In this document: piece after piece, positions 1 through 23,815 of the stretch
Numbering within the stretch: the stretch's first letter is position 1
Layout: each line of letters begins with the position of its first letter
Origin: a virus
Virus record (IMG/VR): IMGVR_UViG_3300045988_091806
DNA length: 37,844 nt
Reading direction: 5' to 3' (one strand)
Position numbers and translations under genes: made by a program
The notes under the pieces: model-generated
What the model saw: the letters and a program-made list of their open reading frames with translations, nothing else
What the model was told of the DNA's origin: nothing
Database searches by the model: none

Positions 1-58
1 AATTAATCATGTCTTCATTCTCATACTCAAAATCAGCCATATCACAGCATACGTCTAT
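1..58. repeat. Terminal direct repeat, copy 1 (58 bp, identical to 37787..37844). Implies a circular or terminally redundant unit of 37,786 bp.
   Basis: Read directly: bases 1-58 (aattaatcatgtcttcattctcatactcaaaatcagccatatcacagcatacgtctat) recur exactly at 37787-37844. Confidence 0.95.
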
Positions 59-226
59 GACTATTGCCTGCTGGAACTCTGTCAGATTATCAAAGCCTCT
101 TGATGTTATACGATTAAAAATAAGCGAGTCGATATGACGGCTCGCCTGCTTTAATCTTCGTTCTATCTGTTCATCCGGGATAAGATTATGCTCACTTAGG
201 TACTGTTCTTTACTTGCATATACCAT
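1..226 (-). CDS. Head-tail connector/adaptor protein, 5' part. The gene wraps the junction and is completed by 37638..37786, giving 124 aa in total.
   Basis: ATG at 226 gives MVYASKEQYLSEHNLIPDEQIERRLKQASRHIDSLIFNRITSRGFDNLTEFQQAIVIDVCCD. This runs in frame (226-40 = 186 nt) into the MADFEYENEDMIN ORF, which starts inside the repeat. It sits directly after the capsid gene. The gp6/YqbG-like family call is positional. Confidence 0.6.
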   Translation of the reverse strand, partial: MVYASKEQYLSEHNLIPDEQIERRLKQASRHIDSLIFNRITSRGFDNLTEFQQAIVIDVCCDMADFEYENEDMIN

Positions 227-237
227 AAGACCACCGC

Positions 238-372
238 CTATTCTGTCCTATCTTCCTTTGGTTCATCTGCTGTTACTTTCTCTTCCTTGGGCTTGTCTTC
301 CTTTGCCTTACCTGTTTTCTTTGACCTAATAACCTTTGGTTCAAAGGTCAATCCAATTACTGTATCTGCCAT
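238..372 (-). CDS. Small Lys/Glu-rich protein (44 aa), function unknown.
   Basis: Not in the ORF track because it is under 60 aa. Strong SD AAGGAGG lies 7 nt before ATG 372. Translation: MADTVIGLTFEPKVIRSKKTGKAKEDKPKEEKVTADEPKEDRTE, TAG at 238-240. It fills the gap between the capsid and connector genes. Confidence 0.55.
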   Translation of the reverse strand: MADTVIGLTFEPKVIRSKKTGKAKEDKPKEEKVTADEPKEDRTE

Positions 373-384
373 AATGATTCCTCC

Positions 385-1374
385 TTAATTATCCTTATGT
401 GATACATATACCCCAGCGGTCTTATTCTCATATACATGGCCATAAAGATTATTATTACGATACTTGAATACATGACTATCGCCATCCTGGTCCTGATCTG
501 GACTAAAGTACTTAATATACTGATCCATAGCTGTTACAGCTGCAGACTTCTCTACACATAAGAAGTTAACATTCTTAGCCGGCTTAGTTGTCATCTCGTA
601 ATTTTCAACCTGTGTTCCACTTGGACTACTAACAGCCTTATAATTGCCCTCACTTTCTTTTGTGTAATAAGTCTTACCCGGCTGTGGTGATGTATCCTTT
701 GATAATGTATAAGCTGCCTTAGTCTTTTCATATCCATATGAATTCTTACCATCATGAAGGGTTATTGATGTGTACATACGTGACTGTGGAACTGATATGA
801 TCTGAGAAAATCTCTTAAGTACTTCTCTTGATTTAGTTGTATCCATATCGTCCGCAAGAGAAGCTAATGTAGGTGTGATGAATAAAATACGTGATTCCAT
901 AGGAACTTCATCCTCATCCATCTTATTAGCACAAGCTCTTAACGCTGTTATTAATTCAGCTCCTGTTTCAATATTCTCTTCCTTTACTGTTATATCCTTA
1001 GTTCCACAGATTTTAGCAATACGCGCGGCATCTGTTTCCGGAATAACCTTTGTTCTTAAGAATTCGCTTGATAACTTGGCAAATGGCTGTGCAAGTGTTT
1101 CATCATTATCAAGACGGTCGATTCTTAAATCCTGTGAACGTTCCTTATCGTACTTAACTGTTTCCCATGTAAGTGAAGTTGAACCCTTTGTATAACCTGA
1201 CTTTCTATCAAAATCACCAAGTGCATCCATATCAAGCTTCGCAATCTTGATTTCACCGTTATTGCCTTTTCTTACTGTTGTTTCATCACCATCTAATACT
1301 GAGGTCTTTGCACCTTCCTTATACACCTCATCAAGTATTGGAAGGTATATTGTAGATAATTCGATATTATTCAT
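385..1374 (-). CDS. Major capsid protein (putative, HK97-fold type).
   Basis: A 329-aa ORF immediately downstream of the scaffold gene in a TerS-TerL-portal-MuF-scaffold-capsid order, with an SD-like AAGGAA upstream. The call rests on position and size; no catalytic motif is expected. Confidence 0.75.
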   Translation of the reverse strand: MNNIELSTIYLPILDEVYKEGAKTSVLDGDETTVRKGNNGEIKIAKLDMDALGDFDRKSGYTKGSTSLTWETVKYDKERSQDLRIDRLDNDETLAQPFAKLSSEFLRTKVIPETDAARIAKICGTKDITVKEENIETGAELITALRACANKMDEDEVPMESRILFITPTLASLADDMDTTKSREVLKRFSQIISVPQSRMYTSITLHDGKNSYGYEKTKAAYTLSKDTSPQPGKTYYTKESEGNYKAVSSPSGTQVENYEMTTKPAKNVNFLCVEKSAAVTAMDQYIKYFSPDQDQDGDSHVFKYRNNNLYGHVYENKTAGVYVSHKDN

Positions 1375-1392
1375 ATAATCCTATTCCTTTCT

Positions 1393-2043
1393 TTACTGCT
1401 TTGGCTTTAATCCGAATAACTTTCTTATCGCATCATCATTACCCGGATTGCCATTTCCATTGTTACCAGGAGCACCTATCTGGAAGCCAGCATTGTTATC
1501 CATACTTGGCTTAAGTGCTGGTACATCTTTAAGTACCTGCTCAAGTGAAGCTTTGATATTATCTTCAGACACCTTTCCATCCACACCCTTTACCTTGCTG
1601 AAATCAGCCATCTTAAGCACATAGGGAAGTGTCTTAGCTTCTATACCAAGTGTCATTGCTACCTTTGTAGCTGCAAGCTCAATCTGAGCCTGTTCAGCAA
1701 CCTTATGTGCTGCTGCCACTTCATTCTGAAGATTAGCATTAGCGTTCTGTTGCTGTTCTGTCTGCTGCTGCTTATTCTGTTTAAATGTCGCAATAGCCTG
1801 ACTTATCTCATCTTCTGATAATCCCTGCTGCTGAAAATAGCTTTTAAGCACAGCATTCTCTTTCTTGGCAGTCGCATTATCCAGCATTGCCTGTATCTTG
1901 TCATAATCAACACCAGCCGCCTGCTGATTATTCTGATTACCCTGCTGTCCTGCCTGTCCACTATCTCCTCCAGCGTTCTGGCCGCCGTTACCATCTCCAC
2001 CTTCTGCGAAGAGCTGTAAATTCATAGGTAATGTCTTTCTCAT
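1393..2043 (-). CDS. Capsid scaffolding protein.
   Basis: SD AAAGGAGA lies 7 nt before ATG 2043. The N-terminus is MRKTLPMNLQLFAEGGDG (MNLQLFA-type N-terminus), followed by a Gly/Asn/Gln-rich stretch and then helical Q/E/K-rich sequence. The track start at 2136 is a GTG lying inside a terminator hairpin. Confidence 0.75.
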   Translation of the reverse strand: MRKTLPMNLQLFAEGGDGNGGQNAGGDSGQAGQQGNQNNQQAAGVDYDKIQAMLDNATAKKENAVLKSYFQQQGLSEDEISQAIATFKQNKQQQTEQQQNANANLQNEVAAAHKVAEQAQIELAATKVAMTLGIEAKTLPYVLKMADFSKVKGVDGKVSEDNIKASLEQVLKDVPALKPSMDNNAGFQIGAPGNNGNGNPGNDDAIRKLFGLKPKQ

Positions 2044-2117
2044 CACTCTATCTCCTTTCTTCCGTTTACCGCCCGTCGGCATTTTCCTAAAGTTTAGTGC
2101 CATTAAGTTTTGGGCAT

Positions 2118-2156
2118 AAAAAAAATAGGCACACACAGCTTATTTGCCATGTGTGC
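2118..2156 (-). terminator. Rho-independent terminator downstream of the DUF2829 gene.
   Basis: On the minus strand: GCACACA..(14 nt loop)..TGTGTGC, then CTA and a run of 8 T (plus-strand A-run 2118-2125). Confidence 0.7.
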
Positions 2157-2200
2157 TTAATAACTAATATTAAATTGTGTTGCACTGGTTCAACTTTGGA

Positions 2201-2668
2201 CTATTCTACTATAATCCAATCTTCAGCGAGACAATCGTTAATACTTGGAACCCACATTGAATGTGAACCATCCACATTTTTTATCTGAAAATATGGGTTA
2301 CATATAAACAAATCGCCTTCGTTTAACCCCCATGCTTCCGCTGTTTGCTTATTGCAGGGGATTCCATTCGGATATGCTTTCTGATATACAACAAACATTC
2401 CTTTTCCGTTCCAACCTCTTCTTGCTACCTTATTACCTTTTTTCATGGCCTCAATAGCAATTCCAAATGTCATATTGTCACATTTTCTATACGCTTCATT
2501 AAATTGTTTCTTAGGACACCAACTTTCATATCCATCAGAATATCTTATATGATAGCCTTCATCTTCTGGATTCTCGTCACTTGGTATCTTCCATCCTCTG
2601 TATGCATTGTATTCGCCTCTGCTCATTGGCTCTGCTGCCACCACTTTTACTCCAATATAATCCTTCAT
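2201..2668 (-). CDS. Two-domain protein: an N-terminal small phage domain plus a C-terminal DUF2829 (Thoeris anti-defence Tad2-type) domain.
   Basis: The C-terminal half is MTFGIAIEAMKKGNKVARRGWNGKGMFVVYQ...PYFQIKNVDGSHSMWVPSINDCLAEDWIIVE. This matches the DUF2829 pattern (GxKVxRxGWNGKG ... W.PS..D.LAEDW.IV). SD GTGAGGA lies before ATG 2668. Confidence 0.7.
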   Translation of the reverse strand: MKDYIGVKVVAAEPMSRGEYNAYRGWKIPSDENPEDEGYHIRYSDGYESWCPKKQFNEAYRKCDNMTFGIAIEAMKKGNKVARRGWNGKGMFVVYQKAYPNGIPCNKQTAEAWGLNEGDLFICNPYFQIKNVDGSHSMWVPSINDCLAEDWIIVE

Positions 2669-2698
2669 TTCTAAATCCTCACTTTCTTAAAATTGGGT

Positions 2699-2730
2699 AT
2701 AAAAATACCACCAATCTTGCGACTGGTGGC
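2699..2730 (-). terminator. Terminator-like hairpin between the JAB-like ORF and the DUF2829 gene.
   Basis: On the minus strand: GCCACCA-10 nt loop-TGGTGGT followed by ATTTTTAT. The stem is 6 GC/AT pairs plus one G-U. Confidence 0.5.
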
Positions 2731-2860
2731 TACAAAACTGATTATTTTATTTCTGGCCAATCCGTAAGTTTATCACTTTCTTCTTTAAGCCTTTCTTCTT
2801 CTTTTTCAAAATCTTCTATTGTCCAATCTGGATGATGTATCACAACATCCAAATAACATC

Positions 2861-3550
2861 TTATTCTATTTCCTGCCATGATATACCATACTCCTTTCTA
2901 AACTCATTAAGTGCTTTTTCGTAAGCTTCTTTAATATTTAAATTGTATTCTTTTGAACAATACTTGTCAATCCTGTTATCTAACAAATAAGGTAAAAATG
3001 GTTTATCTCCTACGGAATATTTATATATTCTTCCATCATGTGTTACTACTATTCCATATTGATATCCTCTTGCCCCAGCAGCAACAAAATCACTTCCATT
3101 AGGTAATAAATTTGTTGGATGATTATGTATTCCTATTATATCATTTTTGTGCTTATTTATTATAGACATTTGCTTCTTATTTAGTTCAACACCTATTGCA
3201 TCAGGCTTTCCCCTTACATTAAGCAACACCTGTCTATTAGAAACGCTTATCACACATAATCCCTCAGTATCACTACTGTTATTACTTCTCAATATATCCA
3301 TTGATTTACTATATATTACATTATTTAATTCCATATCTTTGCTAATCTTCATATATTTATCCGCATAATCTTTGGAATTAATATAGTCTAGGTCTATTTT
3401 ATTCGTTCCTATTCTCTGAGAATTATTATCTATATATCCCCTCTCATATTCTTTTGAAACATTCTCCCATTGTTCCTTCCTCGCTGCATACACTTTCTTG
3501 TTATCCGGGTCTAATGAGTACTTAGACAGCCTGTCAAACTGCTCAACCAT
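2861..3550 (-). CDS. JAB/RadC-like (MPN-type) domain protein. The reading frame is open upstream to 3688 and continuous with the MuF ORF across one TGA.
   Basis: Motif ...TEGLCVISVSNRQVLLNVRGKPDAIGVEL...DIIGIHNHPTNLLPNGSDFVAAG...GIVVTHDGRIYKYS resembles the RadC/JAB layout (E...HNHP..x..PS..D). ATG 3550 has no convincing SD. Codons 3551-3688 contain no stop. Confidence 0.6.
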   Translation of the reverse strand: MVEQFDRLSKYSLDPDNKKVYAARKEQWENVSKEYERGYIDNNSQRIGTNKIDLDYINSKDYADKYMKISKDMELNNVIYSKSMDILRSNNSSDTEGLCVISVSNRQVLLNVRGKPDAIGVELNKKQMSIINKHKNDIIGIHNHPTNLLPNGSDFVAAGARGYQYGIVVTHDGRIYKYSVGDKPFLPYLLDNRIDKYCSKEYNLNIKEAYEKALNEFRKEYGISWQEIE

Positions 3551-3688
3551 TCTGCCTGCATACTGCTGCTTCTGGTCTTGCTTGTAATCTTCTTTGACCT
3601 TTTCTAACTCTTCCTTTGTGAACTTGCTGTCTGGCTCTTCATCCAGTTCAGGAAAGTATGTTGTATGTACGTCTTTGCAATTAGGTCG

Positions 3689-4519
3689 TCAAGGATGGTA
3701 AAGACCCGCTGCTATTGCCGAAGACATTAACGGATAATTACCATCACTTGCATCACCTCCACTCCATACATCATCTATCAGCACCTTACCAACAAATGGA
3801 AGGCACTTAGGACAGGCGTTAGCACGCTTATTCATAATAACTGTACTAATTCCCCATGATTGTCTCATTTCGCCTTCTCCGGTCAGATATGCACGCTTAC
3901 ACGCTGTCTGAATTGCCATCTTGGCATAGTCTTTCATGGTATGCCTTGCGCCATTTGCATATTCAATACAGTTGATACCTGCCTTAAGAAAGTCCTTTGT
4001 AGCCATGTCCACAGCCTTCTCATATGTTCCTGCGCCTGTATTCGCATAGACCTGAGCATTAAATATTATCTGTCGATATTTATCCTCCGACATTCTAAGC
4101 ATTGCTTTTTCTGCCCTATTAAAATCCGATTTCGTTGCTTTAATCAGGGCATTGAGCTTCCTTGTATTCAATCTGAAAAAAGCACCCTCAGCGCCTTGCG
4201 ACACCTTAGATGCTTTCAACCCTTTCTTTAATGCTCTTAATATTTTCTGCTCCTGTTCTGTTCCACCTTCCTGTCTGGCTGCAAATATCATTGCGTCAAT
4301 AGAATCATTTATGTTACTGAACGACTTCGTGAACTTCTTTTTATTCTGTGCCTTATACTTTTCCATAGCCTTAAGCTGTTCTACCTGCCACTGTGACCAG
4401 TTAAACCCCATATCTGTCTCTTCTGCTCTGTGGCTCGCAAGATTGCGCATCATAGAAGCAATCAGCTCATCTTCTATGGCTTCAAATGCTTTCTCTATAT
4501 CATAGTCCGTATTTAACAT
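3689..4519 (-). CDS. Head morphogenesis / minor capsid protein, Mu F / SPP1 gp7 family.
   Basis: A 276-aa ORF directly after portal. It contains CPKCLPFVGKV ... AAGLYHP and then TGA. The expected PNC(K/R) part of the MuF C-terminal motif appears just after the stop (RPNCKDVHTTYF). Confidence 0.8.
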   Translation of the reverse strand: MLNTDYDIEKAFEAIEDELIASMMRNLASHRAEETDMGFNWSQWQVEQLKAMEKYKAQNKKKFTKSFSNINDSIDAMIFAARQEGGTEQEQKILRALKKGLKASKVSQGAEGAFFRLNTRKLNALIKATKSDFNRAEKAMLRMSEDKYRQIIFNAQVYANTGAGTYEKAVDMATKDFLKAGINCIEYANGARHTMKDYAKMAIQTACKRAYLTGEGEMRQSWGISTVIMNKRANACPKCLPFVGKVLIDDVWSGGDASDGNYPLMSSAIAAGLYHP

Positions 4520-4530
4520 AGGCTACCTCA

Positions 4531-6030
4531 TTAAAAGCTTTCCACTTCAAATCCATCTAATTCTGTATTAAGTTCCGGTTCTGTCATCTGTTCAATTCCC
4601 TGTTCTGCCTTAAGCCTTGCAACTTCTTCCTGTTTCCAGTCATCATCCTTAGTGTCACCATACAGCTCATCAATGGACGCTTCTACACTCATAATGCCTC
4701 CCTGCTTGGCTTTGCTCACTGTCTCAACCTGGCTCTCAAAGCTAGGATTCGCATATTCACCAAATGTCACATCAACATCAATGTCCTGTGTTGTTGAATT
4801 ATTAAGTGTATCTATCGCCTGCAATGTCATTTTTACAAGCTTCGGAAGAACCTTCTGGAGCTGATTTACAATATTATTTCTACTGTACAGCGTTGCTTTT
4901 TCCTTCTCCCTCTGTGCTTCTGCATTATCAAGCTTCTTTACATCTATTCCCAATGTAGAAGGGCTCATGATTCCCTGTAAGCAAAGGTCCAATGCCGTGA
5001 TATATGTAGCAAGATACCCTTCATGTGGTATTTCACTCTGTTCTCTTTCAATCTTATAATTTGCACCTTCTGCCATAGGAGACGAATACTGTATATAAGC
5101 GTTGTCAAATGAATTTGGCAGCATAACCTCTCCATTACTAGGATTTCTAGGAAGTAAATTCTCTGGTATATATTCCTTTGTGCGGTTATGTCTTAAAGCG
5201 TCCATCCACTGGCTCCATGCTTCATCCAGCGCGTCAAATTCATCTATCTTGCTGTCATATATGCTCTTGCCTCTGCCTTTAAATTTCGCTGATTTATAGA
5301 ACATGAGCGGTATGGCCATCATAAAACTTTTATCTTCCCATGTTACAGGTCTTAAACCTGCAAGCTCCGGCACAGTGCTGATATCACATTCTTTATTATC
5401 TCTTGTGAGCATATATGTTATATAGCCTTTGCCATATGTTTCAAGCAGAATGTACTCTTGATTCTTAACTGTATATACTGTCTTAAACACAACCTCTTTC
5501 ACTCTGCCGCGTTCTCTTATTATCTCTACCCTGTCGCCAGGATAAAACTCTATGATTGGATACTGACTGAGATTCGTGTCTATGGATAGCTTAAATGCTC
5601 CATCTCCAACAATAAGTGTATCTGATATTGCTTGCTTTATAAGCTCTGTAAAGTCATTTTCTTCCGCTATCTTATCCCAATCTGACTGCCTACTGCCAAC
5701 ATCTACCTCGTTCATATCTGCAACAACAATACTTGCAAGCATATCAACCATCATTGCAGGTAATCCTACATGTATCTTTCTTATCGCTAATCCAGGAGAG
5801 CATTTTGCAGCCCAGAATCTTGTCTTGTCCCCATCAACCTGATCATACAGCTGTGACAGCTCTTCACTTACACCTCTGTACCATATCTGATTCTTAATGG
5901 CGTTACCTTCAAAGTCGAAGATTTCCTGTATATTAATTATTCCTCTCTGTGCCGGCTGCACACGCAACCATGTCCTTATTCCATCTCTTATCTTATCAGC
6001 CATAGTATTAAATATGCTCACCTCTCTCAC
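4531..6030 (-). CDS. Portal protein (SPP1 gp6-like size class).
   Basis: An ORF of about 490-499 aa between TerL and MuF. The start is uncertain: GTG 6030, GTG 6021 (SD AGGAGA 9 nt upstream) or ATG 6003. Confidence 0.8.
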   Translation of the reverse strand: MREVSIFNTMADKIRDGIRTWLRVQPAQRGIINIQEIFDFEGNAIKNQIWYRGVSEELSQLYDQVDGDKTRFWAAKCSPGLAIRKIHVGLPAMMVDMLASIVVADMNEVDVGSRQSDWDKIAEENDFTELIKQAISDTLIVGDGAFKLSIDTNLSQYPIIEFYPGDRVEIIRERGRVKEVVFKTVYTVKNQEYILLETYGKGYITYMLTRDNKECDISTVPELAGLRPVTWEDKSFMMAIPLMFYKSAKFKGRGKSIYDSKIDEFDALDEAWSQWMDALRHNRTKEYIPENLLPRNPSNGEVMLPNSFDNAYIQYSSPMAEGANYKIEREQSEIPHEGYLATYITALDLCLQGIMSPSTLGIDVKKLDNAEAQREKEKATLYSRNNIVNQLQKVLPKLVKMTLQAIDTLNNSTTQDIDVDVTFGEYANPSFESQVETVSKAKQGGIMSVEASIDELYGDTKDDDWKQEEVARLKAEQGIEQMTEPELNTELDGFEVESF

Positions 6031-6034
6031 TCTC

Positions 6035-7420
6035 CTATCCGTTCTCTACTCCAACTTTGTCCCTGTATGGTATCCAGCCATATTGTGTACTGTTTACCAT
6101 ATGATCATTTCCATCTTCCGGCTCACAGTCTTTATCTTCCAGCCAACTGTATACCTGCAGTTCCCCGGTGTAGTTCGTGCATGTATCTACAACATAATAG
6201 CTTGGCTCTTTGCCCTTTTCGTCGTTAAAGGACATCCAGCCAAGCTGCAGGTTTATTCTGTCTATTATTGTTACTTTCTTATACGCATTATTGAATATAT
6301 ACAGGCATTCATGATGTTCTCTCTTATACTTGGCAAATTCTGTTATTGTCGCCTGATCAGCGTTATCAATAAAGGTGTTCTTTGCCATGCCGCCCCATTC
6401 CTTACGATTTCTTTCAAGGAAATCTATATAATTCTTAACTGTATCGCTTGGAGCTATTGGTATATCAAGAGCCGCATTGTTATATACCTTTTCATCCAGT
6501 ACTATCAGCTTGCCTTTGTTGGTTATTCCCATAAAGGACATAGCAATAGTATCAGGACTCTTCGTTGAATATGCCGTATCAAGACCGCTTGTATATATTA
6601 CAAACCATTCTGTCTGCTTATCGTCATATTCTTGCTTAATAAATACCTTTGCCTGTTCTTTAGTAATAACATGTCTTTTGCAGAAATTAGAAAAGACAAG
6701 ACCTGTAGCCTTGCCTCTCAACCCTAATATCTTGTTTTTATATATCTTAGTACCAGGAGGATAGCTCATTTTCTTCTGTTCTATCTTCTCTGGTGTCATG
6801 GATATATTATCTTCAAATGTGAAGAACCAATATACCCAGTCTTTAATAGGCTCACAACCGTTAAGGTCCTTCCATATCTCTTCAGGCACATCTGCCTTGT
6901 ACTTATCAATCGGTCTTGCGTGATTGATGTACTCTGAATATATGGGTAATGTAGGTGCGTCTGGGTTAAGTGTACCGACAAAGTATTCACTTCGTCCGAA
7001 TATCTCTCGTATGAAGTCTATGTTAGCTGTATTGCACTCATCTACCCACACACAACCAAACTGACTTCCAAGTGCATTTTTCCATTTACTGGCATTATCA
7101 TAGCCAAGAATATATATTATCTTGGTACTGCTGCCAGTTTTAAATTTAATGTGTGGAAGTTTATTTTCTTTATCGCCATTACCACAGTATTCCAAATTAG
7201 GGAATATCTGAAGTAATCCCATATCTGCATTGATTATATTCTTCTCGATAACGCCTGTTGTATTACCAGCTATAACATGCAGCTTCATATCCGACTCAGC
7301 TACATTCATTATGAACTTCACAGCTACTGTTGTTGTCTTACCTGATGCAGTAGAGCCTTCAAGGAATTCTGCTCTTGCTGGTGTATCTATGTAATCCCAA
7401 TACTTATCACTTAGAAGCAT
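6035..7420 (-). CDS. terL: Terminase large subunit.
   Basis: Walker A-like EGSTASGKTT near the N-terminus and size of about 460 aa, following TerS. SD AAGGGGTGA lies 5 nt before ATG 7420. The track start at 7450 is a TTG. Confidence 0.85.
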   Translation of the reverse strand: MLLSDKYWDYIDTPARAEFLEGSTASGKTTTVAVKFIMNVAESDMKLHVIAGNTTGVIEKNIINADMGLLQIFPNLEYCGNGDKENKLPHIKFKTGSSTKIIYILGYDNASKWKNALGSQFGCVWVDECNTANIDFIREIFGRSEYFVGTLNPDAPTLPIYSEYINHARPIDKYKADVPEEIWKDLNGCEPIKDWVYWFFTFEDNISMTPEKIEQKKMSYPPGTKIYKNKILGLRGKATGLVFSNFCKRHVITKEQAKVFIKQEYDDKQTEWFVIYTSGLDTAYSTKSPDTIAMSFMGITNKGKLIVLDEKVYNNAALDIPIAPSDTVKNYIDFLERNRKEWGGMAKNTFIDNADQATITEFAKYKREHHECLYIFNNAYKKVTIIDRINLQLGWMSFNDEKGKEPSYYVVDTCTNYTGELQVYSWLEDKDCEPEDGNDHMVNSTQYGWIPYRDKVGVENG

Positions 7421-7997
7421 CAGGCTCACCCCTTGCCTTACGCTGAGCAAGAAGCTCTGATAGCTCGCTCCTGGTTGTATCGCTTACATTGGCTTCTATC
7501 TTGTCTGTAAAGATGCCTAAATGCTTGCCAAGAAGCTCCAATGCCCTTACCTTGTCACATGGCTTGACCTCTAATCCATCTCGTCCTTTCTTAATAACAG
7601 CTAATGCTCTCTTCTGTTCCTCTGTAAGTTCTTCTGTCAATACTGGCTCTACAGTCCTATATGTAACAGGTTTTCCATCTTCATCCAGTATATCCACAAG
7701 CATTCCGCCTACTTCTGCTTTCATTTTCTTTTCAACTACATGTGCATAATCTGCTGTATTAGAAAAAGCTATCAAGGCAAGTTCCCTGATAACTCTTTCC
7801 TGAGTTACCTCTGTACTCCTTGATAGCTCTTTTTGTCTTTTCGCTATATATTCCTGAACCTTAACATTCCTTAACAGTCTTGACGCTGTCTGTTCTGCTG
7901 TCTTTGGTGAATATCCTGCCCTAATAGCTGCCTGTGTAGCATTAAGGTCTATAAGATATTCTTCGCAAAACCTCTTTTGTTTATCAGTTAATGCCAT
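7407..7997 (-). CDS. terS: Terminase small subunit (Terminase_2-type).
   Basis: The N-terminus MALTDKQKRFCEEYLIDLNATQAAIRAGYSPKTAEQTASRLLRNVKVQEYI is the classic TerS HTH signature. SD AAAGGAG upstream. The ORF ends TGA-TAA. Confidence 0.9.
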   Translation of the reverse strand: MALTDKQKRFCEEYLIDLNATQAAIRAGYSPKTAEQTASRLLRNVKVQEYIAKRQKELSRSTEVTQERVIRELALIAFSNTADYAHVVEKKMKAEVGGMLVDILDEDGKPVTYRTVEPVLTEELTEEQKRALAVIKKGRDGLEVKPCDKVRALELLGKHLGIFTDKIEANVSDTTRSELSELLAQRKARGEPDASK

Positions 7998-8050
7998 ACA
8001 CTCAGCTCCTTTCTGGCATAATAAAAGACCTCATTTTAAAAACAAGGTCT

Positions 8051-8338
8051 TCACACTATATTACTTATTTTTTTATAATATTTATCGTATTCAATTATAT
8101 TACCAAAAAATTCTATTACTGACACTATCATAACAGCTATATCTAATGCTGTCAGCGTGCCAGTAAATATACTTTGTGCTAAATTAATACTTGTCAATAC
8201 AATAACCACAAAATATCCTGCTACTTTCCAAGCCGAAACTGCATCATGTTTTTTATCTTTAGAAAATATTTTTATACCTCCTCCTACAAAAAACATTATA
8301 AATACGATAATTAATACAGATGAAACTGCTACTTTCAT
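8051..8338 (-). CDS. Small integral membrane protein (about 3 TM segments), function unknown.
   Basis: 95 aa: MKVAVSSVLIIVFIMFFVGGG... with three hydrophobic stretches. SD AAGGGGGGA upstream. It is AT-rich and lies between the late activator and TerS. Confidence 0.6.
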   Translation of the reverse strand: MKVAVSSVLIIVFIMFFVGGGIKIFSKDKKHDAVSAWKVAGYFVVIVLTSINLAQSIFTGTLTALDIAVMIVSVIEFFGNIIEYDKYYKKISNIV

Positions 8339-8397
8339 AAATATCCCCCCTTATATATTTTATATATCGTCAGGTTGCTTATATTTCTTAAGAGTTA

Positions 8398-8430
8398 TTA
8401 AAAAAGACACCAGCCTTAAGCCAGTGTCTT
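8398..8430 (-). terminator. Terminator-like hairpin after the late-activator gene.
   Basis: On the minus strand: AAGACAC-13 nt-GTGTCTT followed by a T-run (GUGUCUUUUUUAAUAAC). Confidence 0.4.
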
Positions 8431-8526
8431 ACCGGGGGTATTAATATTTAATAATGGAGAAATCATGCTGTCCATCAAGTCCAGTTTAGATATTAACACA
8501 GACAAAACGAACAGAGCGAACAAACT

Positions 8527-8988
8527 TTAAATTTTTGCTAAAAATCTTTCTACTGCCATTCTGCAGCCGTCTGCTGTATGATGTTTTCCCATCTTTCTTG
8601 CTACCTGCACCCAGGATAAACCTTCTATGTATCTTAATGTTATAAGTCGTCGCATTCTGCTATTGTCAATTTCATTTATACATTGTTCTATTAGATTAAT
8701 CTGTGCATCTATCTTTTCTTTAACATCCATCTGCTGCCGCTGTCGCACTAAAAGAAGTGTTCTCTTTCGTGAATATGCCGGATAAGGGAAGCCTTCTACA
8801 ACAAAATGCTGCTTACCTCCGTTTCCACCGGTAACACTATCCTTTTCCGTATAGCCTTCAGCTTCCATTTTATCAAGTTCTCTTTGTATCTTATCAATTG
8901 CAGCCTGTATTTCCTGTTTCTCCTTAACCAGATCATTGTACTGCTTAAGAAGGTCTTTTATATTGTTATTTTTCAAGTTATTCATCAC
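8527..8988 (-). CDS. Sigma-70 region-4-like transcriptional activator (RinA/ArpU/DUF1492-type late gene regulator).
   Basis: The C-terminus RRLITLRYIEGLSWVQVARKMGKHHTADGCRMAVERFLAKI is a region-4 HTH. The N-terminus is a coiled coil. It is the last early gene before the packaging module. Confidence 0.65.
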   Translation of the reverse strand: MMNNLKNNNIKDLLKQYNDLVKEKQEIQAAIDKIQRELDKMEAEGYTEKDSVTGGNGGKQHFVVEGFPYPAYSRKRTLLLVRQRQQMDVKEKIDAQINLIEQCINEIDNSRMRRLITLRYIEGLSWVQVARKMGKHHTADGCRMAVERFLAKI

Positions 8989-9385
8989 CTACCCTCTTCT
9001 CATCTGCTGCCAGTTTTTCCTTATCCAAGATTTCCAAAATATAATACTGCTTATCCGGAGAAGCTCCCCACTGTGGTCTCCCTTTTCCAATCCTTAATCT
9101 GCATCTTGCTTTTATTTCTTTAGAATTCTTTGAATAGCCATTACGGAAAATAATCTCCTGAATGCCTTCTTTTCTTATCTCCTCTGGTACTGCCTCTCCT
9201 TGCAATAACTCATATTCGCTTCTATCTAAGAAATTGTCTGGTGGATATAATGGATGTATGGTTATGGCTCCGAACAGGTTCTGGAATCTTGTTTCGTAAT
9301 ATTCTTTTATTTCCCGATACTCTTCTTTCTTCTCACCTGAAAGAATCATATCAAACCATTTTTTCTTGATTGGCAATATTAGCAT
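8978..9385 (-). CDS. ASCH domain protein.
   Basis: The N-terminus MLILPIKKKWFDMILSGEKKEEYREIK matches the ASCH signature (IK..W...I.sGeKk.EyR). Confidence 0.65.
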   Translation of the reverse strand: MLILPIKKKWFDMILSGEKKEEYREIKEYYETRFQNLFGAITIHPLYPPDNFLDRSEYELLQGEAVPEEIRKEGIQEIIFRNGYSKNSKEIKARCRLRIGKGRPQWGASPDKQYYILEILDKEKLAADEKRVGDE

Positions 9386-11136: not shown

Positions 11137-12840
11137 TTAGGCAAATCTTAATTGCCCTGTCTTTTCCTCGTTTATACTGCAGTTAGGCATTCTCTGCGCT
11201 ATACATAATTCTTTAAGGTTAGCCCTTACCAGTGCATTTGGTATCATTGGACTTACAGAGTTCCCGCACCGCTTAACCTGTTCTGTTCTTGGATATGTCT
11301 TACCAGTGTAATCATGGTCTATAATGTAATCGTCCGGGAAACCCTGGCATCCATATAGCTCTCTTGGCTCCAGCATTCGAAGTCCAATATCTACAATTTG
11401 ATAATCCTCACCTTCGATTGTTACTAAGCCGAATCGATCCCGCGATGTTACTGTATCTAACGGCTCTTGAATGTCCTGTCCGGTGCCTTGTCCGTAATAC
11501 TTTATCAGAAATGCCCGAACTTCCCCGAAATGTCCATCTCCGGCCGTAATGGTAGGTAAGGGTTGTCTTATGTCCTTCCCATCGCAGTGATTGTTCATCT
11601 GGATCAAATTTGCCGTAACAACGCTGTTATGATCCCACGCTGTTATTGTCGGCAGTGGATTTTCCATGCTTTCTCCGGCTCCCTTATAGCCACCATCATA
11701 ATATTTATGTAAGAATGATGTAACTAATCCATACCGGTTTGATCCATCCACGGTCATGATCGGATCCTTTATTGTCTGTCCCCGGACTTCTCCCTGTGCT
11801 GTTTCGGAATGGTACTGGATCAGTGTAGGACATATTAAACAATGCTCGTTTTTACTTACTATTGTAGATAACGGCTCCTGAATATTCTTGCTCCGGTCTT
11901 TTGTAAAACCAGTCTGTCCAATCTGAATCATGTAAGGTTCAACAATCCCATATCCATGTTTACCTGTAATTGTTGGCAATGGTTCTTTAGTATCCAGCGG
12001 TCTTCTGTCTCCACCATGATTACACTGAACAATAAAAGGCTCTGGATTATCCAAAACAAATTTCTTTAATCCTCTTGCGATTCTTTCCATTGTCTTAGGT
12101 GCTAATGGTCTTACCGCTTTTATTCCATATTTCTCTTTTATCTGTTCAGATGTATCAAAGATACTGGGGCATGGTCTGCTAAAATCTATCTGCGTATATG
12201 CTCCAACATAAGGCTTTAGCAGTCCCTCTTTCACGGCTTCGCTGTCTGCCGGTGCATGTGTAGGCTCTGGCCATATAATAGGTCTCTTGTCACATCTTGC
12301 AACCATAAAGAATCTCTTTCTCATGGTTGGCGCTCCGTAATCTGCTGCCACAAGCTCCCTGAACTGCACTTCATATCCTAAATCCTGCAGCTGGCTTACA
12401 AACTTATTAAATGTCTTTCCCTGCTTTGCTTTTATCGGATGATGTCCTCTATTCAGCGGTCCCCATGTCTTGAATTCTTCCACATTCTCCAACATGATTA
12501 CTCTAGGTCTTACCAGTCCAGCCCATCGGCATGCTACCCATGCAAGACCTCTTATATTCTTATCCTTTGGCTTGCCGCCTTTTGCCTTGCTGAAATGTTT
12601 ACAGTCTGGAGAGAACCAGGCAAGCCCCACAGGATGCCCATTACATGCCTGCACTGGGTCTACCTGCCATACATCTTCACAATAATGCTTTGTATTCGGA
12701 TGGTTTGCTTTATGCATTGCAATAGCCTTAGGATCATGGTTAATTGCTATATCAACACTAAAGCCGGTAGCTTCTTCTATTCCAGTGGAGGCACCGCCCC
12801 CACCAGCGAAATTATCAACTATTAATTCCCCGTTTATCAT
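11137..12840 (-). CDS. DNA (cytosine-5)-methyltransferase with six tandem TRD-like modules.
   Basis: Motif I NFAGGGGAS, motif IV SPDCKHFS, motif VI MLENV, motif VIII TMRKRFF and motif X GNSVSP are present. SD GGAGG lies 6 nt before ATG 12840. The variable region repeats xPLxT(I/V)T...LV...(L/M)I six times. Confidence 0.85.
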   Translation of the reverse strand: MINGELIVDNFAGGGGASTGIEEATGFSVDIAINHDPKAIAMHKANHPNTKHYCEDVWQVDPVQACNGHPVGLAWFSPDCKHFSKAKGGKPKDKNIRGLAWVACRWAGLVRPRVIMLENVEEFKTWGPLNRGHHPIKAKQGKTFNKFVSQLQDLGYEVQFRELVAADYGAPTMRKRFFMVARCDKRPIIWPEPTHAPADSEAVKEGLLKPYVGAYTQIDFSRPCPSIFDTSEQIKEKYGIKAVRPLAPKTMERIARGLKKFVLDNPEPFIVQCNHGGDRRPLDTKEPLPTITGKHGYGIVEPYMIQIGQTGFTKDRSKNIQEPLSTIVSKNEHCLICPTLIQYHSETAQGEVRGQTIKDPIMTVDGSNRYGLVTSFLHKYYDGGYKGAGESMENPLPTITAWDHNSVVTANLIQMNNHCDGKDIRQPLPTITAGDGHFGEVRAFLIKYYGQGTGQDIQEPLDTVTSRDRFGLVTIEGEDYQIVDIGLRMLEPRELYGCQGFPDDYIIDHDYTGKTYPRTEQVKRCGNSVSPMIPNALVRANLKELCIAQRMPNCSINEEKTGQLRFA

Positions 12841-12841
12841 A

Positions 12842-20239: not shown

Positions 20240-20268
20240 AATATAATTACTATCTGCAAACTTGTCAA
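20240..20268 (-). promoter_or_regulatory. Leftward (cro-side) promoter.
   Basis: On the minus strand: TTGACA (20268-20263), a 17-nt spacer, then TATATT (20245-20240). Confidence 0.55.
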
Positions 20269-20298
20269 TAGTTTCCTTTGCATTTTGTAAACTTTTTA

Positions 20299-20327
20299 TT
20301 GACATGTTTGCATTTCATTCATATAAT
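20299..20327 (+). promoter_or_regulatory. Rightward (repressor-side) promoter with consensus hexamers.
   Basis: TTGACA (20299-20304), a 17-nt spacer, then TATAAT (20322-20327). Confidence 0.65.
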
Positions 20328-20366
20328 CAAATCATACAAATGTTATTCAAGGCGGTGATTAATAAT

Positions 20367-20675
20367 ATGGGAGATATTTTTAACGAAAATTTAAAGTCAG
20401 CAAGAGAAAAGAAAGGTTTATCTCAAAAAGAAGTTGCTGAAGCTATTGGGGTCGCCAAATCTACATATTCTTTATATGAGAGTGGGAATAGAGAACCTAA
20501 TGTTCAAACTATAAAGCGAATTGCTGATGTATTAAATGTTTCTGCCGATGTGCTTTTAGGATTAGAAGAACCTCATACTATAGCTGCTCATTTTGATGGA
20601 GATGGATTTACGCCAGAGGAATTAAATAAGATAGAAGAATTCGCTAATTTTGTTAAGTCAAAAAGAAAAAACTAA
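20367..20675 (+). CDS. cI-like XRE-family repressor.
   Basis: GLSQKEVAEAIGVAKSTYSLYESGNREPNVQTIKRIADVLNVSADVLLG is a classic XRE HTH. ATG 20367 lies after AAGGCGGTGA. The track start at 20262 is a TTG inside the operator region. Confidence 0.8.
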   Translation: MGDIFNENLKSAREKKGLSQKEVAEAIGVAKSTYSLYESGNREPNVQTIKRIADVLNVSADVLLGLEEPHTIAAHFDGDGFTPEELNKIEEFANFVKSKRKN

Positions 20676-20687
20676 GGGGATGATTTA

Positions 20688-21161
20688 TTGACTGATTATG
20701 AGAAATTATTATCCAATGCAAACGATAATAATGTTACAGTTTATGATGACTACAATTTGAAGGGAACTAGAATAAAAGGATTATATTGTGATGGCTCTGT
20801 TGCTATAAGTAATAGCTTAAGAACACAAAAAGAAAAAACCTGTGTACTTGCAGAGGAATTAGGACATTTCTACACCTCAACCGGAAATATCTTAGATATG
20901 TCTGACACTGGTAACAGAAAGCAAGAAGCTAGAGCCCGTCTGTGGGCATATAACAGACAAGTTGGTTTGCAAGGTATTATTAATTGTTATAAGGCCAATT
21001 GCAGAACTTTACATGATATGGCAGATTACTTAAATGTAACAGAAGAATTTCTAAGTGACGCTATTGAATGTTACCGTTCTAAATATGGCATATCCGTGCA
21101 AGTAGACAATTATGTTGTTGGGTTTCAACCATCATTATATATTATGGAATTATTTGAATAG
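20688..21161 (+). CDS. ImmA/IrrE-like metallopeptidase domain protein (DUF955-like) with a variant motif.
   Basis: CVLAEELGHFYTS occupies the place of the HExxH motif (A-E-E-L-G-H). The TTG start lies 7 nt after AAGGGGA. It sits directly downstream of the repressor, as in ImmR/ImmA pairs. Confidence 0.65.
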   Translation: MTDYEKLLSNANDNNVTVYDDYNLKGTRIKGLYCDGSVAISNSLRTQKEKTCVLAEELGHFYTSTGNILDMSDTGNRKQEARARLWAYNRQVGLQGIINCYKANCRTLHDMADYLNVTEEFLSDAIECYRSKYGISVQVDNYVVGFQPSLYIMELFE

Positions 21162-21169
21162 GAGAAAAC

Positions 21170-22453
21170 ATGGGATTATCTGATATATTAAACGCTAAAA
21201 AACTTCGTGAAGAAAACGAACAATTAAAGAAAATGATCACTCCCGAAATGCAGACTAGTTTTGATTTATCACAACATATAGAATCACTAAAAGCTCAGGT
21301 TAATGATTTACAGGGACAATTTGATAATTTGAATAATCGCATTAACGATAAAGGACAGGAATACAATAATCTTCTTGACCTTATAGATGAAACAAAATCA
21401 AAATTGATTATTATGCAAGACGATGTACTTGTACAAGAGTTTGGTTTGTATACACCTATTTATGATTTCGCCACATCTGATGGCTATAAAGAAAAATTAA
21501 CAGCCATCAGGGATAGACAGAAACAAATGATAAAAAATGGTACTGCTGCCACTGGTGCTATTAATTGGCAAGTTAATGGTAGCCTACAAAAAGGTTCTAA
21601 GATGGTAAGTGATACTCAAAAACTTTTGTTAAGAGCTTTTAATAGCGAATGTGATGAGGTAATAAATAACGTCAAATACAATAATTTTGATATGTCGCTT
21701 AAAAGAATTACAACCTCTCGCAACGCAATATCACGACTGGGAAAAATGATGCAGATTTCAATATCCAATGAGTACTATCAGGCTAAAGTAGATGAATTAC
21801 ATCTTGCTTTTGAATATCGTCAGAAAAAACAAGCAGAAAAAGAGGAACAAAGAGAGGCTAGAGCTGCTCTTCGTGAAGCTGCCAAGCTACAAAAGGAAAT
21901 AGAAGAACAACGAAAAGCTATTAATAAAGAGCGTAATCATTATCAAAACGCTTTGCTATCTGTTTTAAAACAAATTGAATCTTCTCCTACGCCTTCAGAT
22001 GAGCTGATACAAAAGAAAAATGAGCTTGAATCACAACTTGGTGTTATTGATGTGAAAATAAAAGACTTAGATTACAGAGAAGCTAATCAGCGTGCTGGTT
22101 ATGTTTATGTTATTTCTAATATTGGTGCATTTGGTGAGAATATTTACAAAATTGGTATGACCCGCCGTCTTAACCCTCAAGATAGAGTTGATGAATTAGG
22201 TGATGCGTCCGTTCCTTTCAATTTTGATGTGCATGCAATGATATTTTCTGATGATGCTCCTGCACTTGAGAATGCTCTACATAAAGCCTTTGAAAATCGT
22301 AAGGTTAATATGGTCAACCATAGAAGAGAATTTTTCAATGTTACATTGGATGAAATAAAAGATGTTATACGACAAAACTATGACAAGACTGTTGAATTTG
22401 TCGATATCCCAGATGCAGAACAATATAGAGAAAGTCTGAAAATGAGACAATAG
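21170..22453 (+). CDS. DUF4041 plus T5orf172 (GIY-YIG-superfamily/MUG113-like) domain protein.
   Basis: The N-terminal part has VQEFGLYTPIYDFATSDGYKEKLTAIRDRQKQMIKNG...WQVNGS..KGSKM..DTQKLLLRAFNSECD. The C-terminal part has GYVYVISNIGAFGENIYKIGMTRRLNPQDRVDELGDASVPFNFDVHAMIFSDDAPALENALHKAF. SD AGGAGA upstream. Confidence 0.75.
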   Translation: MGLSDILNAKKLREENEQLKKMITPEMQTSFDLSQHIESLKAQVNDLQGQFDNLNNRINDKGQEYNNLLDLIDETKSKLIIMQDDVLVQEFGLYTPIYDFATSDGYKEKLTAIRDRQKQMIKNGTAATGAINWQVNGSLQKGSKMVSDTQKLLLRAFNSECDEVINNVKYNNFDMSLKRITTSRNAISRLGKMMQISISNEYYQAKVDELHLAFEYRQKKQAEKEEQREARAALREAAKLQKEIEEQRKAINKERNHYQNALLSVLKQIESSPTPSDELIQKKNELESQLGVIDVKIKDLDYREANQRAGYVYVISNIGAFGENIYKIGMTRRLNPQDRVDELGDASVPFNFDVHAMIFSDDAPALENALHKAFENRKVNMVNHRREFFNVTLDEIKDVIRQNYDKTVEFVDIPDAEQYRESLKMRQ

Positions 22454-22470
22454 TATATGGAGGTATTAAT

Positions 22471-22569
22471 ATGAGTGAAAAAGAACAGTTATTACAATTA
22501 ATTGACAATATGCCTGATTATAAGATTGGGTATATATTAGCTTTTGTAAAGGGGCTTTTTGCTTGCTGA
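22471..22569 (+). CDS. Small orphan ORF (32 aa) resembling the N-terminus of small antitoxin-like proteins; possibly truncated.
   Basis: Not in the track. SD GGAGG lies 8 nt before ATG 22471. Translation: MSEKEQLLQLIDNMPDYKIGYILAFVKGLFAC, then TGA. A G4/T5 homopolymer tract lies just before the stop. Confidence 0.45.
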   Translation: MSEKEQLLQLIDNMPDYKIGYILAFVKGLFAC

Positions 22570-22640
22570 TTTCTTTGAAAGCTTTGCACATGGATTATAA
22601 ATTACAATATAACGCTATAAATTAAAATATATTGGTATAC

Positions 22641-22709: not shown

Positions 22710-22741
22710 GAGTCTTGGGATTGTATTCCAAGGCTCTTTTT
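22710..22741 (+). terminator. Leader terminator/attenuator hairpin between the promoter and the Abi RBS.
   Basis: GAGTCTTGG (22710-22718), a 9-nt loop, CCAAGGCTC (22728-22736), then TTTTT. The RBS AAGGAG starts 7 nt later. The GC-rich segment CTGCTGGGCGGTCGCGG lies just upstream. Confidence 0.6.
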
Positions 22742-22759
22742 GCATATAAGGAGAAATAT

Positions 22760-23815
22760 ATGACTGATATACCTTTTTCATCAATTGATAAACAAATAGA
22801 AAAACTTGTATCTCAAAATTTAATTATAGAGGATACTGGTTATGCTAAATACATATTGGAGCTATTTGGTTACTCTAATCTTATCAAAAGTTACAGAGAA
22901 CCTTATGTTATCAAAACAGACACCTCAATTCAATATCGTTCAGGTGTAACATTTGAACAAATTCATTCTCTATATATGTTAGATAAGAATCTGCGTAATT
23001 CTGTTATGTCAGCAATGCAGGATTTGGAAGAACATATAAAAGAGACTGCTGCCAGCGTCGTAGCTGAAACCTTTGGTACTAATGAAGAAAATTACCTGGA
23101 TTACAGAAACTACAGAAATAAAAAGAAACGAAAGAAAAGATTTACTCTACCAGGTATACTTGATACATTAAAAAAGACTCTTGATACAGATAAAAATCCA
23201 ATATCACATTATGCTGAAAAATACGGCAATGTTCCACCTTGGATTCTTTTTAAAAGCATTTATTTTAGCACAATTATTAATTTCATTGACTTATTTAAAA
23301 AAGACGAATTGGTTAAGCTTGCTCATAAACTATATAGTGATGATTTAGATATGTCTGATGAAGAATTATGTACATTAATGATGGATACATTATTTATATG
23401 TTTGGATTACAGAAATACCGCTGCCCATGGAGGACGCATTTATAATCATAAATGCAGTTATACCCTTCGCAAAGAAAAGATATTTGTCAATGGCATTGAA
23501 CCTACCCCACCTGGTTTTAGTCAATTATTGTTTTTATTAAGTTTGATGGATTATAAAAGTCCTTATCTCTTTCTCCTCAAATCGTTAGAGATACAGATTA
23601 ACAAACACTGCGGTAATTTTCCTCAAGATACAACATATTTAGGTCAGATACTTAATATGAATATTGTACCTCACAATATAGTGTATGTAACCAATAATAG
23701 CAATAAATATCATTCTATTAACCACTGCAGTGGAATAAAAGATGCCTTCGAAATTGATACGGAGGAAGCAATAGAAAAGGGATATGTACCTTGCAAACGA
23801 TGTGTTAAAAAATAA
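22760..23815 (+). CDS. Abi_2 (AbiD/AbiF-like) abortive-infection family protein with an extra C-terminal Cys/His zinc-ribbon-like tail.
   Basis: The N-terminus is SIDKQIEKLVSQNLIIEDTGYAKYILELFGYSNLIKSYREPY, and the core contains LDYRNTAAHGGRIYN. The tail is VYVTNNSNKYHSINHCSGIKDAFEIDTEEAIEKGYVPCKRCVKK. SD AAGGAGA lies before ATG 22760. Confidence 0.7.
   Translation: MTDIPFSSIDKQIEKLVSQNLIIEDTGYAKYILELFGYSNLIKSYREPYVIKTDTSIQYRSGVTFEQIHSLYMLDKNLRNSVMSAMQDLEEHIKETAASVVAETFGTNEENYLDYRNYRNKKKRKKRFTLPGILDTLKKTLDTDKNPISHYAEKYGNVPPWILFKSIYFSTIINFIDLFKKDELVKLAHKLYSDDLDMSDEELCTLMMDTLFICLDYRNTAAHGGRIYNHKCSYTLRKEKIFVNGIEPTPPGFSQLLFLLSLMDYKSPYLFLLKSLEIQINKHCGNFPQDTTYLGQILNMNIVPHNIVYVTNNSNKYHSINHCSGIKDAFEIDTEEAIEKGYVPCKRCVKK

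Follow-up and report, generated by a model that had tools for sequence, protein, structure and literature searches.

Sponge proteins are a main phage route against signalling immunity, namely Thoeris, the cyclic-oligonucleotide-based antiphage signalling system (CBASS) and the pyrimidine cyclase system for antiphage resistance (Pycsar). One family of sponges is Tad2, whose founding member, SPO1 Tad2 (gp34.65; 8SME/8SMF/8SMG), is a single-domain protein encoded in the early/middle gene cluster of a lytic myophage. Here, we report the computational analysis of a Tad2-family gene (2201..2668, minus strand) in a viral DNA of 37,844 nucleotides (IMG/VR record IMGVR_UViG_3300045988_091806; this whole stretch is referred to as the window). 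The gene encodes a 155-aa protein of two domains and lies, unlike that of SPO1, in the head operon, in a slot where sister phages carry the same gene, other genes, or none.

SPO1 Tad2 contacts 3′ cyclic ADP-ribose (3′cADPR) through W25, N26, W73 and D79, with S76, D67 and I63 (bioRxiv 10.1101/2023.05.01.538930). ModTad2, from a prophage of Myroides odoratus (8V3E, 9EIB), sequesters histidine-ADP-ribose (His-ADPR), the signal of type II Thoeris, and takes cyclic UMP or cyclic CMP (cUMP/cCMP) in a second pocket. The cyclic-dinucleotide pocket of HgmTad2, also described as AcrIIA7, involves a 41-aa insertion with R31 and N85 (PMC10680739). In pdAcrIIA7, a Tad2 core with an N-terminal extra domain (a head of two helices and 48 aa) is still tetrameric.

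A domain order like that of the window protein is found in RyR Tad (Pectobacterium phage vB_PatP_CB1 gp68), in which an N-terminal domain is followed by a signal-binding sponge domain. The latter has an all-helical, ryanodine-receptor Repeat12-like fold and not that of Tad2; the protein is dimeric, and its gene belongs to an N4-like phage, where it lies in an early hotspot for anti-signalling genes. In the crystal, the N-terminal domain is a domain-swapped dimeriser with a five-stranded sheet, β1 completing the sheet of the partner, an arrangement reported for gp68 only; residues 1-86 of gp68 alone gave no inhibition of type I Thoeris. Small oligomeric sponge domains are also joined in modular fashion, as in the window protein, in Acb4-Tad2 (Pasteurella phage Pm86), Tad2-Sequestin and Acb4-Sequestin (phage Ab09), but there both halves are proven sponges, whereas the first half of the window protein is without a known ligand. 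In genome position, the window gene resembles the DUF2829 gene of phage phi4J1 and its relatives (SpaA1, BceA1 and Waukesha92), which stands in the order MuF, DUF2829, scaffold, major capsid. Its product is 69-71% identical to residues 66-155 of the window protein but is a single domain of 97 aa, without the N-terminal part, in another phage genus and host.

Results

The 155-aa protein starts at an ATG, with a ribosome-binding site read from the sequence (GAGGA, 2676..2680, minus strand) 7 nt before it. Over its full length it matches PHROG 872 (E = 2e-54), and its homologues number over 2,500, with lengths near 155 aa being common. Residues 66-155 (2204..2473, minus strand) form a Tad2-like domain according to Pfam, sequence matches in the PDB, Foldseek and pocket mapping. 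The Pfam family PF11195 (now Tad2-like) was matched by residues 66-154 over profile positions 1-73 of 73 (E = 5e-26; 91.5 bits against a cut-off of 25), and a PDB sequence search returned six solved Tad2-family sequences with E values of 5e-19 to 4e-11 (ModTad2 as 9EIB and 8V3E, both at 5e-19, HgmTad2/AcrIIA7, SptTad2, pdAcrIIA7 and SPO1 Tad2). The Tad2 fold has a helix at its N terminus and then an antiparallel sheet carrying helical inserts, and an AlphaFold2 monomer model built from 105 homologues (mean predicted local distance difference test [pLDDT] score, 92.3) conforms to it. With Foldseek, all 24 matches in the PDB at E ≤0.001 were Tad2 structures (each at E ≤2.5e-5), the best being ModTad2 8V3E (template modelling [TM] score, 0.89; root mean square deviation, 1.9 Å).

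ModTad2 is also the best solved relative in sequence, at 48% identity to residues 63-155, and has in common with the window protein the GWNGKGMF loop and the W-x-PS-x-SD-x-LAEDW tail. It differs in being a single domain of 89 aa, where the window protein has an additional N-terminal domain, and in its β2-β3 insert, which the insert of the window protein (QKAYPNGIPCNKQTAEAWGLNEGDLF) does not resemble. SPO1 Tad2 is 42% identical, and aligning gp34.65 to the 155-aa protein showed that all seven 3′cADPR contacts listed above are conserved, as W86, N87, W139, D145, S142, D133 and I129 (in the order W25, N26, W73, D79, S76, D67, I63). Among the 105 two-domain homologues, W86 and N87 do not vary, and conservation of W139, S142 and D145 is 90% or higher. 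HgmTad2/AcrIIA7 and pdAcrIIA7 (8KBI, 9KZR) have the same core fold as the window protein, and equivalents of the core ADP-ribose pocket of HgmTad2 (W21, N22, S90 and D93) are conserved in it. A cyclic-dinucleotide pocket of the HgmTad2 type, sought as a long β2-β5 insertion with R31, S47, F70 and N85, was absent from the window protein; its β2-β5 insertion is about 29 aa long against 41 aa in HgmTad2 and unrelated in sequence, with Q96 in place of R31 and M138 in place of N85.

Residues 66-154 are thus a genuine, full-length Tad2 domain. An earlier note on this DNA, written from the letters and their translations, had assigned the C-terminal half of the protein to DUF2829, the family of Tad2, and proposed a Pfam search and a comparison of structure and pocket. 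Its quoted peptide strings agree with the translation, and both comparisons bear the assignment out, with a significant, end-to-end PF11195 match, six solved relatives, the Tad2 fold in the model, and W25/N26/W73/D79 of SPO1 Tad2 represented in the protein. The note had further taken the N-terminal part for a separate, recurrent small phage domain, and this too proved right for about the first 62 aa. Against its further suggestion of a possibly bifunctional protein stands the one experiment on a member of the N-domain family, the divergent gp68, in which the domain dimerised and showed no activity against type I Thoeris.

The N-terminal domain (N-domain; residues 1-62; 2483..2668, minus strand) has the order β-α-β-β-α and belongs to the family of the N-terminal domain of RyR Tad. 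It has no Pfam family (a Tudor_5 match at E = 0.014 was below threshold and discarded), and a PDB sequence search gave no match at E up to 10. The monomer model has strands at residues 2-5, 9-14, 38-42 and 48-52, with helices spanning residues 17-24 and 53-59. For a model of this domain (pLDDT 91.9), Foldseek found no related fold in the PDB, the best match (E = 0.77) being weak SH3/Tudor-like noise. A phmmer search with the 65-aa segment against 1.84 billion cluster representatives (50% identity) returned 2,449 proteins at E up to 0.001. Y20, G38 and W50 are invariant in the domain, and A12, G18, N21, G25, W26, P29, E32, Y39, Y43, S49, P52 and F56 nearly so.

What accompanies the N-domain was surveyed by a Pfam scan of 131 top matches, in which the partner was Tad2-like in 38 proteins, PF13876 in 21, PF21825 in another 21, an Acb2/Tad1 hairpin in 2 and OmpA in 1. 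PF13876 is the Acb4 sponge (PMC11722364), and PF21825 is Sequestin, another 3′cADPR sponge, which was found via Pfam fusions to Tad2 and Acb4 (bioRxiv 10.1101/2025.07.12.664507). Many Sequestin and two Lockin homologues in the supplementary tables of that study carry the N-domain, which goes unmentioned in its text. A profile hidden Markov model (HMM) made from the 131 proteins scored 96 bits against a Sequestin homologue, 45 bits against a Lockin homologue and 36.5 bits against residues 5-66 of gp68 (E = 1e-13 for a single sequence), whose N-domain is divergent and lacks the YRGW motif; pairwise BLASTP with gp68 gave E = 1e-6. The partner families thus number at least six: Tad2, Acb4, Sequestin, Lockin, the Acb2/Tad1 hairpin and RyR Tad. 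Among the 149 top representatives, a known sponge domain is present in 92, and about 30 consist of little more than the N-domain; N-domain-Acb4-Tad2 triple proteins also occur. The domain is N-terminal in most of these representatives and C-terminal to another domain in a minority (e.g., P0136).

Three other identities were considered for the N-domain and rejected. A cryptic second Tad2 repeat, suggested by R-x-GW and W-x-P/S in both halves, was dismissed on the profile score of SPO1 Tad2 (−0.6 bits); for Lockin, the termini deduced from published primers do not fit, and Lockin homologues carry the N-domain in addition; for Acb5, the key residues do not fit. The N-domain is a separate accessory module common to many sponge families.

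Sister phages were collected using MuF as the probe, giving a set of 80 IMG/VR phages with MuF proteins 82-98% identical. In this set, the interval from MuF to scaffold is hypervariable (1.16-4.4 kb). The slot is bounded on the left by a hairpin element (hairpin1; 2690..2730, minus strand) and on the right by a conserved, intrinsic-terminator-like element (terminator2; 2119..2156, minus strand). The first gene after hairpin1 is an N-domain-Tad2 (N-Tad2) gene of the window type in 18 phages, another N-Tad2 gene in about 5, a Tad2 gene with N-domain residues 25-61 deleted (ΔN-Tad2) in 5, Tad2 alone in 1, N-domain-Sequestin (N-Sequestin) in 9 and a DUF4406 protein in 13, while in 4-6 phages there is nothing. 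The natural ΔN allele (L086, L094, L095, L100 and L103) encodes 115 aa, is cut between two AYR motifs with Tad2 intact, and lies about 60 nt after the hairpin1 element; it provides a natural control by which the contribution of the N-domain could be judged. The DUF4406 cargo (13 loci, e.g., L119, L123 and L149) encodes 99 aa of a nucleoside 2-deoxyribosyltransferase-like family; the stand-alone Tad2 cargo (84 aa, of a different type; L163) lies about 20 nt after the hairpin1 element. Longer MuF-scaffold intervals also hold Rha/ORF6C antirepressor-like and ribbon-helix-helix genes.

Relative to the empty alleles, the insert in the window is a cassette of 498 nt (2195..2692, minus strand) comprising the ribosome-binding site, the gene and a 6-nt 3′ tail. 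Its junctions read ATACCCAA followed by TTTTAAG on the left and TAGTCCAAA followed by GTTGAACCAGTGCAAC on the right; in the empty allele, ATACCCAA is joined directly to GTTGCACCAGTGCAAC. Occupied, alternative and empty alleles have identical, exact junctions among the 80 phages. The right junction falls at a palindrome (GTTGAACCAGTGCAAC; 2179..2194, minus strand), perfect in relatives (GTTGCAC-CA-GTGCAAC) and present in occupied and empty alleles alike. Comparison with one relative (L003) points to recent exchange, because positions 2731..2175 are 96% identical whereas the backbone flanks are 78-84% identical. Between an N-Sequestin gene and the window gene, hairpin1 and the N-domain codons are 93% identical in DNA, and homology ends at the domain boundary (window 2478); this shared stretch may serve as a homology arm for swapping the sponge domain behind it. 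No consistent target-site duplication or site-specific insertion signature was found at the cassette junctions, and with the flanks conserved, homologous exchange via these flanks is the simplest reading.

The MuF-scaffold position is also used elsewhere. Besides the single-domain Tad2 of Bacillus phage phi4J1 and its relatives, it holds an N-domain-Acb4 gene in Clostridium perfringens phage vB_CpeS-1181 and, in about 20 further Firmicutes prophages, Tad2 genes; a two-domain gene is located between the lysis genes and terS in P22-like phages of E. coli.

Hairpin1 consists of a stem-loop (2730..2707) and a T-run (2706..2699), followed by ATACCCAA; its 10-bp stem (−17.1 kcal/mol; z = −5.9; followed by AUUUUUAU) was equalled in folding by none of 200 shuffles. 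The element is single copy within the window. In 71 of the 80 sister phages, its 40-nt form is present as one copy on the coding strand, whichever gene follows, and in close relatives one stem position is changed (C to T in L015, T to C in L018) with pairing retained. Terminator2 has an 11-bp stem (2156..2129; −17.8 kcal/mol; z = −3.7) followed by CTATTTTTTTT, with 8 T. Minus-strand hairpin-plus-T sites with stems of at least 10 bp number about 5 in 37.8 kb, and two of them flank the 468-nt gene. The distance from hairpin1 to terminator2 is 533 nt in N-Tad2, 512-515 nt in N-Sequestin and about 41 nt in empty alleles. Both hairpins are therefore features of the backbone and not parts of the insert, strong as the terminator-like element after the gene is, because both are kept in the empty alleles.

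The position of the gene within the head module, with a hairpin and T-run on either side, is as the earlier note described it. That note had called the gene a terminator-insulated moron, expressed independently of, or in addition to, late transcription. The gene is indeed a moron-like insert, by presence/absence polymorphism at a fixed site in collinear phages, but the hairpins are not insulators that arrived with it, being backbone, and independent expression lacks sequence support, since the ATG follows hairpin1 after no more than 38 nt, in which a consensus scan found no promoter-like site. Of the σ70-like matches in the first 9 kb, the best (TTGACA-17-TACAAT; 2970..2942) is 270 nt upstream, within a 229-aa open reading frame (ORF), and such matches are not enriched (25 found against 30 expected in shuffled sequence). 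Because the scaffold and capsid genes are downstream of both hairpins, late transcription has to traverse them. Judging from this arrangement, the gene is most likely transcribed together with the head genes via read-through of hairpin1, so that the sponge would be produced alongside structural proteins, and its simplest interpretation is that of a passenger in the late head operon.

The window is a circular, complete assembly of about 37.8 kb, in which nt 1-58 are identical to nt 37787-37844; L003 spans the junction. It encodes an integrase, a helix-turn-helix (HTH) repressor and ImmA, as a temperate phage. The nearest genome record (L003) is an uncultured Lachnospira metagenome-assembled genome, in which the product of the gene is 97% identical at the protein level; no near-identical phage was found in the GenBank phage collection. 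The minus-strand late genes run in the order terS, terL, portal, MuF, 229-aa ORF, 45-aa ORF, the 155-aa gene, scaffold and major capsid. The scaffold gene (1393..2043, minus strand) is directly downstream of terminator2 and is followed by the major capsid gene (385..1374, minus strand).

MuF in this lineage has a polymorphic-toxin architecture. In relatives, a single ORF runs via a conserved linker (...KQQYAGRMVEQFDRLSKYSLDPDNKK...) into variable C-terminal domains, which include ADP-ribosyltransferase PF03496 (two clusters), anthrax-LF-like, PBECR2 nuclease, HExxH and other types. In the window, a 9-nt insertion (TGACGACCT, 3683-3691) introduces an in-frame TGA at which the gene for MuF (minor capsid protein 2; 3689..4519, minus strand) stops; this separates it from the 229-aa ORF (2861..3550, minus strand), the polymorphic C-terminal domain that is part of one continuous ORF in relatives; this domain has no Pfam match. 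The acidic 45-aa ORF (2742..2879, minus strand) overlaps the end of the 229-aa ORF and always accompanies it, being found in sister phages only beside that MuF C-terminal type (98-100% identical); the pair also occurs in another context in L018. The 45-aa ORF thus behaves as would be expected of an immunity or antidote partner.

In the lysogeny module (20262-25266, plus strand), which also contains the ImmA/IrrE-like peptidase and the HTH repressor, candidate defence genes adjoin the integrase, encoding an Abi_2 (Abi-like) protein (22715..23815, plus strand) and a DUF4041 plus T5orf172 protein (21170..22453, plus strand). The early region (11137-15370, minus strand) has two large DNA methyltransferase genes, for an 842-aa fusion of an SNF2-related protein with an N6/N4 methylase and for a 574-aa C-5 cytosine methylase, both probably with anti-restriction functions. 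A small protein with a weak σ70 region-4-like match (8527..8988, minus strand) and a strong terminator-like hairpin just before terS (8430..8404, minus strand) mark 8404-8988 as a candidate late-gene regulator and early/late gene boundary. An Rfam scan of window positions 1..9000 gave no relevant match.

Outside the window, arrays resembling clustered regularly interspaced short palindromic repeats (CRISPR), with very long "spacers," were observed in assemblies of host and metagenome loci (L015:4219-9908, L018:387-3083 and L165-L244, 80 gut metagenome loci), one example being Eubacterium sp. AM49-13BH. Their 36-nt repeat, GTTGAATGCCCCTCCAAAAATGGTGTATCGTTCAAC, begins about 65 nt after cas2 and was absent from the window, IMG/VR and Rfam. 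Type-II-like cas1 was detected in only about 7 of the 80 loci, and L170 had no effector gene within about 9 kb. Successive copies of the repeat, all on one strand, are separated by 169-6,040 bp (91 intervals; median, 676; none near 30 bp), and in 35 of these intervals, head-region (MuF-scaffold) DNA of this phage family makes up at least 30% of the length. The phage fragments lie in either orientation with genes cut arbitrarily, and many end at about window position 2730, the base of hairpin1.

Discussion

In our view, this temperate Lachnospiraceae phage is likely to carry, at a hypervariable slot in its late head operon, an exchangeable cassette for anti-defence, the gene of which encodes a signal sponge of the Tad2 family. 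On the pattern of the solved Tad2 proteins, the C-terminal domain would assemble into a homotetramer with inter-protomer pockets, which, built on the conserved GWNG loop and W-x-P-S-x-x-D segment, would trap an ADP-ribose-derived alarm signal. That signal may come from the Toll/interleukin-1 receptor (TIR) proteins of Thoeris-type systems, as 3′cADPR, His-ADPR or N7-cyclic ADP-ribose (N7-cADPR), and with it sequestered, the bacterial effector would stay off. The N-domain most likely self-associates via a domain-swapped β-sheet as in RyR Tad and would thereby stabilise the oligomer or cross-link it. The sponge reading is supported by the slot itself, which holds functional equivalents in sister phages (N-Tad2, ΔN-Tad2, Tad2 only and N-Sequestin).

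Several points weigh against this assignment. Sponges are generally considered to be needed early, and the gene is located in a late operon, behind a terminator-like hairpin; one conceivable reason would be co-production with the structural proteins that are detected by some signalling defences. Three pocket positions of SPO1 Tad2 are changed in the window protein, the adenine contacts T65 and T78 to N131 and N144 and the water-coordinating H71 to S137; ModTad2 likewise differs at two of these three. Tad2 homologues inhibit Thoeris I, II and IV, CBASS and Pycsar (bioRxiv 10.1101/2025.08.24.671296), and this breadth of signals, together with the three changes, leaves the ligand not nameable from sequence. 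None of the 18 Tad2 homologues assayed in the same study carries the N-domain.

Four other explanations were weighed, each of them less likely than an exchangeable Tad2 sponge cassette. The N-domain might bind a ligand of its own, making the protein neutralise two immune signals in the manner of the Acb4-Tad2 and Acb4-Sequestin fusions. Sequestin was discovered by the same logic, through fusion to known sponges, and the N-domain is joined to at least six sponge families (in 92 of the 149 top representatives to a known sponge domain) and stands alone in about 30; it is of about 60 aa, self-associating, and has aromatic or basic residues at the positions of highest conservation (Y20, W26, Y39, Y43, W50, F56, R17 and R24). 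We nevertheless regard a second ligand as unlikely: residues 1-86 of gp68 are inactive against type I Thoeris and in the crystal only dimerise, a natural allele dispenses with most of the domain, and its N-terminal placement in most top representatives is that of an adaptor. Expression from the prophage, with the gene transcribed on its own and insulated from late transcription by two terminators, is the more doubtful for the hairpins' presence in empty alleles, outside the insert. The phage is temperate and strong terminator-like elements stand on either side, but the 38 nt before the ATG are without a promoter-like site, and the match at 2970..2942, the best in the first 9 kb, would need read-through of hairpin1 and belongs to a class no more frequent than chance; moreover, a sponge made in a lysogen would disarm the host's own defence. 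We hold such a lysogen-expressed moron to be improbable.

A Tad2-fold tetramer could also act as an anti-CRISPR protein of the AcrIIA7 type, binding trans-activating CRISPR RNA (tracrRNA) in a basic groove and blocking assembly of the Cas9 ribonucleoprotein. AcrIIA7 is of the same family (HgmTad2 and pdAcrIIA7, E = 2e-13 and 1e-11), its core domain is reported to bind tracrRNA (PMC13133391, 2026), two E. coli phage homologues carry an anti-CRISPR annotation, and three of five groove residues (K58, K66 and K71 of pdAcrIIA7) correspond by alignment and an offset of 47 to K76, R84 and K89. However, these three positions are basic or invariant in nearly all Tad2 proteins and do not discriminate, whereas the remaining groove residues (K93 and R101) fall in an insert not conserved in the window protein. 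Activity of pdAcrIIA7 was seen only without its N-terminal head domain (PMC13133391), which is unrelated to the β-rich N-domain, and the window protein has an N-terminal domain of its own; Cas9 inhibition by HgmTad2 was not found by another laboratory (PMC10680739); and the alternative cassette of the slot is a Thoeris sponge. An anti-CRISPR role is thus very unlikely. Least credible is a part in the virion, whether as a capsid accessory or as a protein packaged and injected like those of the MuF type. Placement between MuF and scaffold does recur in unrelated Firmicutes phages, and the gene adjoins the polymorphic effector domain of MuF; but sister phages with MuF 82-98% identical lack the gene or have unrelated ones, so it is dispensable for head assembly, and two-domain genes occur at other positions, between the lysis genes and terS in the E. 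coli P22-like phages and in the early anti-signalling hotspot of N4-like phages.

The gene itself, a Tad2-family sponge cassette, varies a type already described; what is new is the lead that the N-domain provides as a common partner of sponge domains, in at least six families. The domain was previously mentioned once, in passing, for RyR Tad, and the search for sponge families via fusions relied on Pfam, so a domain without a Pfam entry escaped it. It is possible, and we suggest it tentatively, that the N-domain is a universal front-end of phage sponges, whether as a further family of ligand-binding sponges or as an adaptor whose dimerisation would increase avidity or link oligomers together. 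Because it fronts at least six otherwise unrelated sponge families, it could be used as a beacon for further sponge domains among its uncharacterised partners. Both possible outcomes, a sponge family or an oligomerising helper, would help to annotate thousands of phage genes now listed as DUF2829 or hypothetical. The sister comparison defines a precise MuF-scaffold hotspot in gut Clostridia phages, at which MuF effector domains and sponge cassettes are exchanged, and its alleles (N-Tad2, ΔN-Tad2, N-Sequestin and empty) are a natural set of isogenic-like variants.

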